Shown here: piece after piece, positions 1 to 139 of the stretch
Numbering within the stretch: position 1 is the first letter of the stretch
How the letters are laid out: each line of letters opens with the position of its first letter
Notes under the pieces: model-generated
The model's input: only the letters and a program-made list of their open reading frames with translations
What the model was told of the DNA's origin: nothing
Databases searched by the model: none
Assembly (NCBI RefSeq): GCF_003018115.1
Contig: NZ_CP027457.1
Strand: one strand, 5' to 3'
Length of the DNA: 64,000 bases
DNA from: Escherichia coli
Lineage (GTDB): Bacteria > Pseudomonadota > Gammaproteobacteria > Enterobacterales > Enterobacteriaceae
Position numbers and translations under genes: made by a program

Positions 1-139
1 GCTTTCCTGCACGAATGATGTCGTCCCAAAGTTGCCGACATTGTTGCCCGGTCCATGAATAAGTCCGTTGATAAATGGGAATAACAAACTGCTGCGAACG
101 TTTTAAAAAATCGAGTAGGCGAGCTTCTGTAGCTTTCAT
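1..139 (-). CDS. DUF262-like (GmrSD/ParB-nuclease-like N-terminal domain) protein, N-terminal 46 codons only; continues beyond window start; yjiT-like position
   Basis: Minus-strand ATG at 139-137; translation MKATEARLLDFLKRSQQFVIPIYQRTYSWTGQQCRQLWDDIIRAGK carries the IPxYQRxYxW signature typical of DUF262; sits downstream of yjiS as yjiT does in K-12. Not in the ORF track because it is under 60 aa within the window. Confidence 0.5.
   Translation of the reverse strand, partial: MKATEARLLDFLKRSQQFVIPIYQRTYSWTGQQCRQLWDDIIRAGK

Follow-up and report, generated by a model that had tools for sequence, protein, structure and literature searches.

Among the described relatives of the gene analysed here are GmrSD, Eco94GmrSD and BrxU, i.e., Type IV enzymes that act against glc-5hmC or 5hmC DNA. 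Defence by a further relative, HEC-06, requires the residues of DGQQR and EHxxP, as shown by the Q79A/R80A and E471A/H472A substitutions, and the nuclease-motif residues of BrxU are likewise essential (bioRxiv 10.1101/2024.01.29.577857). Two other relatives, DndI and SspE, recognise self DNA by sensing phosphorothioate (PT), and DndI is toxic in cells without PT (PMC11662687). The 'dndI' of PMC4373003 is the name of a genomic island and not the dndI gene.

[quoted passage not shown] According to the text of a later survey (Nat Commun 2025, PMC12373910), CLS_001, the largest enterobacterial GmrSD cluster, includes WP_001304006, WP_001304007 and WP_072002093, which are NU14/O157 accessions of the gene considered below. 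Representatives of 15 groups from CLS_001-020 were tested there on T-even phages, and five new ones were active. As no more than five of the new ones were active, CLS_001 could well lack activity against these phages. The active groups are given in the figures of that survey, and in the text of the literature searched, that of the survey included, no biochemical or phage-challenge result was found for the CLS_001 subfamily.

Start of the gene within the window

The window, i.e., the whole stretch of E. coli DNA that was analysed, comprises 64,000 nucleotides of contig NZ_CP027457.1. Its first 139 nucleotides hold the 5' end of a GmrSD-family gene on the minus strand (1-139). Translation from an ATG at 139-137 gives MKATEARLLDFLKRSQQFVIPIYQRTYSWTGQQCRQLWDDIIRAGK and runs without a stop for 46 codons plus 1 nt to the window edge, the rest of the gene lying past the left edge. 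The sequence-only reading had placed the N-terminus of a DUF262/GmrSD-type protein on this strand, and Pfam analysis upheld that assignment. The first 46 residues alone matched PF03235 GmrSD_N (DUF262) with 40.1 bits (E 5.8e-10), as against a gathering cut-off of 33.2 bits, thereby excluding a chance motif match.

The start codon is credible because residues M1, K2 and A3 were invariant in the 25-member family alignment, because the open reading frame listing held no earlier in-frame start upstream of the ATG, and because an RBS-like GGAAAG at 153-148 on the minus strand is followed by the ATG 8 nt downstream. Read from the sequence, this hexamer (148-153) would be the ribosome-binding site of the gene. 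The leader in which it lies (140-231, minus strand) is specific to the cassette described below and has no K-12 homology, as judged from a break in the blastn alignment at window position 232.

Upstream of the leader is yjiS (236-415, minus strand), a 59-aa ORF encoding a DUF1127 protein (Pfam, 46.6 bits) with 95.7% DNA identity to the yjiS region of K-12. In place of this ORF, the RefSeq records of the nearest genomes have an 81-nt DUF1127 CDS and an overlapping 153-nt 'cytoplasmic protein'. A promoter and terminator scan of window positions 1-620 gave no consensus sigma-70 promoter and no intrinsic terminator; the GmrSD-like gene may therefore be transcribed from a weak promoter in the leader or by read-through from yjiS.

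The full gene in the nearest genomes

Window positions 1-2000 were 100% identical in three complete E. coli genomes, i.e., F8111-1SC3, O169:H41 strain 2014EL-1345-2 and ETEC isolate L7_E1373. The window belongs to an E. coli of the ETEC O169:H41 type. Across 25 kb of the window, the best matches had 99.9% identity, and the first 22 kb differed from F8111-1SC3 by one substitution and one 20-bp duplication. The window itself shows 46 codons plus 1 nt of the gene, and its course beyond the left edge is taken from these other genomes. In all three, the frame was uninterrupted over 2,094 bp, encoding 697 aa (18046-20139, minus strand, in one of the records, L001), and the DNA of the gene was identical among them. 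The exact 697-aa protein has moreover been recorded at full length as 'DUF262 domain-containing protein' on 221 contigs (e.g., CAD6017225.1).

Two checks proposed by the sequence-only reading, i.e., for an intact frame and for a C-terminal DUF1524 domain, both came out positive in the nearest genomes, the latter domain lying at residues 415-547 of the protein.

Domain architecture and motifs

Pfam analysis of the 697-aa protein identified GmrSD_N (DUF262) at residues 9-222 (118.9 bits), GmrSD_C (DUF1524) with 94.3 bits, and DUF5655 (PF18899) at residues 591-690, with 49.2 bits and above the cut-off. From its N-terminus, the protein thus comprises a ParB-like DUF262 domain, a nuclease domain of the DUF1524 His-Me-finger type, separated from the former by a long helical linker, and DUF5655 at the C-terminus. 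The motifs DGQQR (residues 78-82), EHIMP (457-461) and GNLTL (490-494) are encoded outside the window and were read in the nearest genomes. In an alignment of 25 homologs from several phyla, with 69-82% identity to the query, the residues Y23-Q24-R25, the DGQQR motif, E457, H458, P461, N491 and N498 were invariant, the nuclease domain displaying the invariant motifs EHIxPQN and GNLTL...N. On this evidence, it is almost certain that the gene belongs to the GmrSD superfamily (GmrSD_N plus GmrSD_C).

NCBIfam assigned no family to the 697-aa protein. With PADLOC, the best match was to a full-length 'Orf5' model (741 bits), followed by HEC-06 (224 bits), and the mREase_IV model gave 95 bits, matching in separate stretches. 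Amongst solved structures, the best match was DndI (9jfl), with an E value of 7e-16 over residues 10-556 by family profile and of 1.7e-8 by Foldseek. DndI was the sole solved relative to align end to end, SspE matching at the N-terminus only. BrxU (7p9k) gave no match by phmmer at E<=1 or by the family profile at E<=0.01, and a weak one by Foldseek (E 0.23, probability 0.77). In the full-length AlphaFold model, which was built from the 25-sequence alignment, mean pLDDT was 68.8 and both catalytic cores were of low confidence; the model was hence used for the linker, the C-terminal domain and a coarse Foldseek search alone.

The C-terminal domain

The DUF5655 domain models as a YdhG/YjbR 'double-wing' fold. 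This fold is shared with YdhG (DUF1801), YjbR-MmcQ (DUF419) and the C-terminal domain of T4 MotA, at identities of 9-14% for the top three matches and 3% for MotA. However, these relatives occur as small proteins on their own or as one domain of a transcription factor, whereas DUF5655 is here fused to a nuclease. From fold similarity at 9-14% identity, we propose that DUF5655 may be an additional specificity module that binds DNA or a ligand.

An exhaustive search with residues 550-697 as query yielded 1,420 representatives at E<=0.001. Beyond the proteins of approximately 700 aa, DUF5655 was found after GmrSD_C alone, after GmrSD_N alone, in three tandem copies and, in protein P0180, after a Type I HsdS target-recognition domain; P0172, P0131 and P0253 are further examples of these varied fusions. 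Some of the shorter DUF5655 proteins may be fragments. The fusions to an HsdS domain and to GmrSD_N, together with the tandem copies, suggest from sequence that DUF5655 could be a portable accessory module of restriction systems. A literature search for DUF5655 returned one unrelated genome note and nothing on domain function.

The locus in the immigration control region

Past the window edge, the three nearest genomes carry symE, hsdS, hsdM, hsdR, mrr and yjiA, and mcrBC is absent from their ICR beyond the gene. The expectation of a restriction/defence neighbourhood at the edge of the ICR was therefore correct, with symE, hsdSMR and mrr adjoining the gene. The latter is opposite in orientation to hsdRMS, and symE lies between them.

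By blastn, the alignment with K-12 breaks off where symE ends and picks up again at window position 232 (position 20232 of record L001), four bases past the yjiS stop; a match to strain GF3-3 likewise begins at position 232. The right-hand junction between the variable ICR cassette and the conserved core on the yjiS side is accordingly placed at 232-235. These breakpoints define a cassette of 2.2 kb with a single gene between symE and yjiS, which fills the slot occupied in K-12 by 7.6 kb carrying yjiT, yjiV', mcrC and mcrB.

Distribution and annotation

The gene was found in 1,480 of 5,426 complete E. coli genomes (approximately 27%), with at least 80% query coverage in 1,358 of the 1,480 and with an identity that was almost always 95-99%. 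Intact 697-aa copies, 98.3-98.4% identical, were present in NU14 and E166, and a 76%-identical variant of 699 aa occurred in another E. coli ICR layout (L007). Homologs of approximately 700 aa with all three domains and at least 70% identity were found in Citrobacter, Halomonas, Oceanimonas, Salinivibrio and Kiritimatiella, and relatives with 52-65% identity on cyanobacterial, alphaproteobacterial and actinobacterial plasmids. Gene neighbours differed between the E. coli variant L007, Sulfitobacter, Nostoc and Arthrobacter.

In O157:H7 SS52 (L005, 4001-6093), a 1-bp deletion in a run of five G residues (G5) at gene nucleotide 801 splits the product into 293 aa and 387 aa. Using short queries designed so that a megablast seed cannot span the indel, we found that 1,005 genomes have the intact G5 context and that 298, apparently of the O157:H7 lineage, have the G4 variant.

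RefSeq describes five intact copies as a DUF262 'pseudogene' ('missing C-terminus' or 'frameshifted') with a separate 387-aa CDS, and amongst the matches listed from the 1,005 G5-intact genomes there was no annotated feature over the G5 site. The fragment boundaries used by RefSeq coincide with those of two O157:H7 proteins, WP_001304007 and WP_001304006, so that the broken O157:H7 copy seems to have served as the annotation template. As intact copies are split or lack a feature over the G5 site, surveys of annotated proteins will miss the gene or mis-size it.

Other features of the window

On the minus strand at 2231-3165, rpnD (yjiP/yjiQ, YhgA-like Transposase_31) is broken into one ORF at 2231-2941 and another at 2971-3165. 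RefSeq labels it 'frameshifted' in the nearest genomes; the K-12 copy is likewise a pseudogene, and that of 2014EL-1345-2 has an extra IS66 insertion. Between kptA and yjiH, at 19585-19624, there is a perfect 20-bp tandem duplication (two copies of ATACCCACATGGCTGATAAG); the unit is apparently single in the two closest genomes, as seen directly in F8111-1SC3 and as deduced from match length in L7_E1373.

Near tRNA-Leu, the window has another Type IV-like defence gene, i.e., a phosphorothioated-DNA-dependent restriction endonuclease with an HNH_2 domain (43897-44769, plus strand; NCBIfam NF045808, 431 bits against a cut-off of 180). Between it and tRNA-Leu(CAA) (48124-48208, minus strand) is an ORF of 682 aa (45398-47446, minus strand) that had no match in Pfam, PADLOC or NCBIfam and may represent a defence gene, as yet uncharacterised, of the leuX integration hotspot. 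A sialate O-acetylesterase ORF with a SASA domain (42678-43685, plus strand) is found beside fragments of an HNH endonuclease, and is labelled 'missing C-terminus' by RefSeq in the nearest genome.

Discussion

We favour the interpretation that the gene encodes a GmrSD-superfamily protein (CLS_001) that forms a single-gene system and acts alone as an NTP-dependent, Type IV-like restriction nuclease, and consider this role, together with its mechanism, to be rather more probable than not by analogy with characterized relatives. As in GmrSD, Eco94GmrSD, BrxU, HEC-06 and DndI, the DUF262 domain would bind and hydrolyse NTP and thereby gate the DUF1524 nuclease, which would nick or cut incoming phage DNA, most probably with modified bases. 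The DUF5655 double-wing domain might add specificity for DNA or a ligand. In this way, the GmrSD-like cassette would fill the role held by McrBC in the corresponding slot of K-12. The stand-alone status is supported by the presence of one gene in the 2.2-kb cassette and by neighbours that vary across the E. coli L007 layout, Sulfitobacter, Nostoc and Arthrobacter. Counting against a Type IV-like assignment is the fact that the nearest solved relative, DndI, is not a Type IV enzyme.

Given that DndI and SspE sense PT as a self mark, we weighed whether the protein might be an effector of their kind, with DUF262 sensing such a mark on host DNA and the nuclease attacking unmarked DNA. Besides the end-to-end alignment that is confined to DndI, Y23 of the protein aligns with the PT-sensing tyrosine of DndI (Y25) and SspE (Y30) (PMC11662687). 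However, Y23 sits in the generic DUF262 motif YQRxYSW and is not discriminating, and none of the eight neighbourhoods inspected contained dnd or ssp genes (dndBCDE, sspBCD). Moreover, dnd/ssp systems are uncommon in E. coli, whereas roughly 27% of the complete genomes of this species carry the gene. A host with PT in its own DNA should not tolerate the PT-DNA-dependent endonuclease of the window, and the toxicity of DndI in PT-less cells further argues against a PT-based mechanism, which we regard as improbable.

Nor is cooperation of the gene with the neighbouring Type I hsd genes at all likely, whether their methylation were to serve as the self mark or DNA recognition were to be shared. Type I restriction-modification (R-M) genes do lie next to or near the gene in both E. 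coli and Sulfitobacter, DUF5655 is fused to the HsdS domain of P0180, and GmrSD-like genes reportedly often sit within Type I R-M and Hma systems. Yet the homologs of Nostoc and Arthrobacter have no nearby Type I genes. Furthermore, the GmrSD-like gene retains approximately 98% identity amongst E. coli strains whose hsd families differ (EcoAI/FtnUII-type in O157; others in the ETEC strain and NU14), and its orientation opposite to hsdRMS, with symE interposed, also argues against a joint function. It is conceivable, albeit unlikely, that the three-domain CLS_001 proteins form a distinct GmrSD branch in which DUF5655, and not DUF262, sets the target, this being a modification or phage cue other than glc-5hmC, or else Type I methylation as a self mark. 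Such a role would explain the unusually high conservation, with an identity of at least 70% across phyla, as well as the occurrence of DUF5655 joined to HsdS and to nuclease-only fragments.

As regards the state of the gene, the RefSeq label of DUF262 pseudogene plus 387-aa CDS in all three nearest genomes and the frameshifted copy in O157:H7 might suggest that the source strain holds a decaying remnant, interrupted just past the window edge. This is, however, highly improbable in view of the single 697-aa frame obtained by direct translation in the three nearest genomes, NU14 and E166, the full-length protein on 221 contigs, and the retention of the G5 run in 1,005 genomes as against its shortening in 298. 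The split labels themselves seem copied from the O157:H7 fragments, the intact copy of E166 being flagged 'frameshifted'.

The sequence-only reading had further equated the gene with yjiT of K-12, as an intact form of what is a pseudogene there. Both share a chromosomal position next to yjiS. However, K-12 YjiT (505 aa) and the yjiV' pseudogene gave no Pfam match, hence no DUF262; the 697-aa protein found nothing better than E 0.22 by tblastn in 30 kb of the K-12 ICR; and the DNA that separates yjiS from symE is not homologous to that of K-12. YjiT instead defines its own family, which is taken to include DruH of Druantia III (preprint, bioRxiv 10.64898/2026.05.12.724681). As the sequences are unrelated and position alone is shared, we reject the equivalence, for which the remaining likelihood is negligible. 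The idea of a gene that is intact here and broken elsewhere holds; the broken copy, though, is that of O157:H7 and not of K-12.

The locus adds an allele to those of a common E. coli ICR cassette and displays the usual swap of Type IV-like restriction genes, this gene for mcrBC, at a known hotspot. The split RefSeq annotation and the DUF5655 domain are the sole points that may merit further work.

Comparison with known systems

The gene is already catalogued, both amongst the ICR GmrSD homologs of He et al. (2015) and in CLS_001. Judged from the 98.3%-identical copy at the same locus in NU14, a urinary isolate, these are probably the same gene. The ICR homologs of He et al. (2015) share its layout, with symE-hsdSMR-mrr adjacent and mcrBC absent. 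They differ from it by allelic differences of about 2% alone, older annotations giving 733 aa from an upstream start that is unavailable in the present strain.

HEC-06 has the DGQQR and EHxxP motifs in common with the protein, and its PADLOC profiles cover residues 8-555 (224 bits). These profiles end at approximately residue 555, i.e., without DUF5655, and the genomic context differs, HEC-06 being embedded in Hma systems.

DndI of Salmonella Cerro 87 (PDB 9jfl; PMC11662687) shares the succession of DUF262 (with DGQQR), helical region and HNH-like DUF1524 at approximately 19% identity. Unlike the present protein, it has no DUF5655 domain, is co-transcribed with dndFGH beside dndBCDE and uses PT as its self mark, whereas no dnd genes lie by the gene described here.

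GmrSD, Eco94GmrSD and BrxU, finally, have the same GmrSD_N and GmrSD_C domains with the same catalytic motifs in a single chain, and are likewise found in defence islands. The protein described here differs from them in its extra C-terminal domain, the sequence comparison within this group being that with BrxU.
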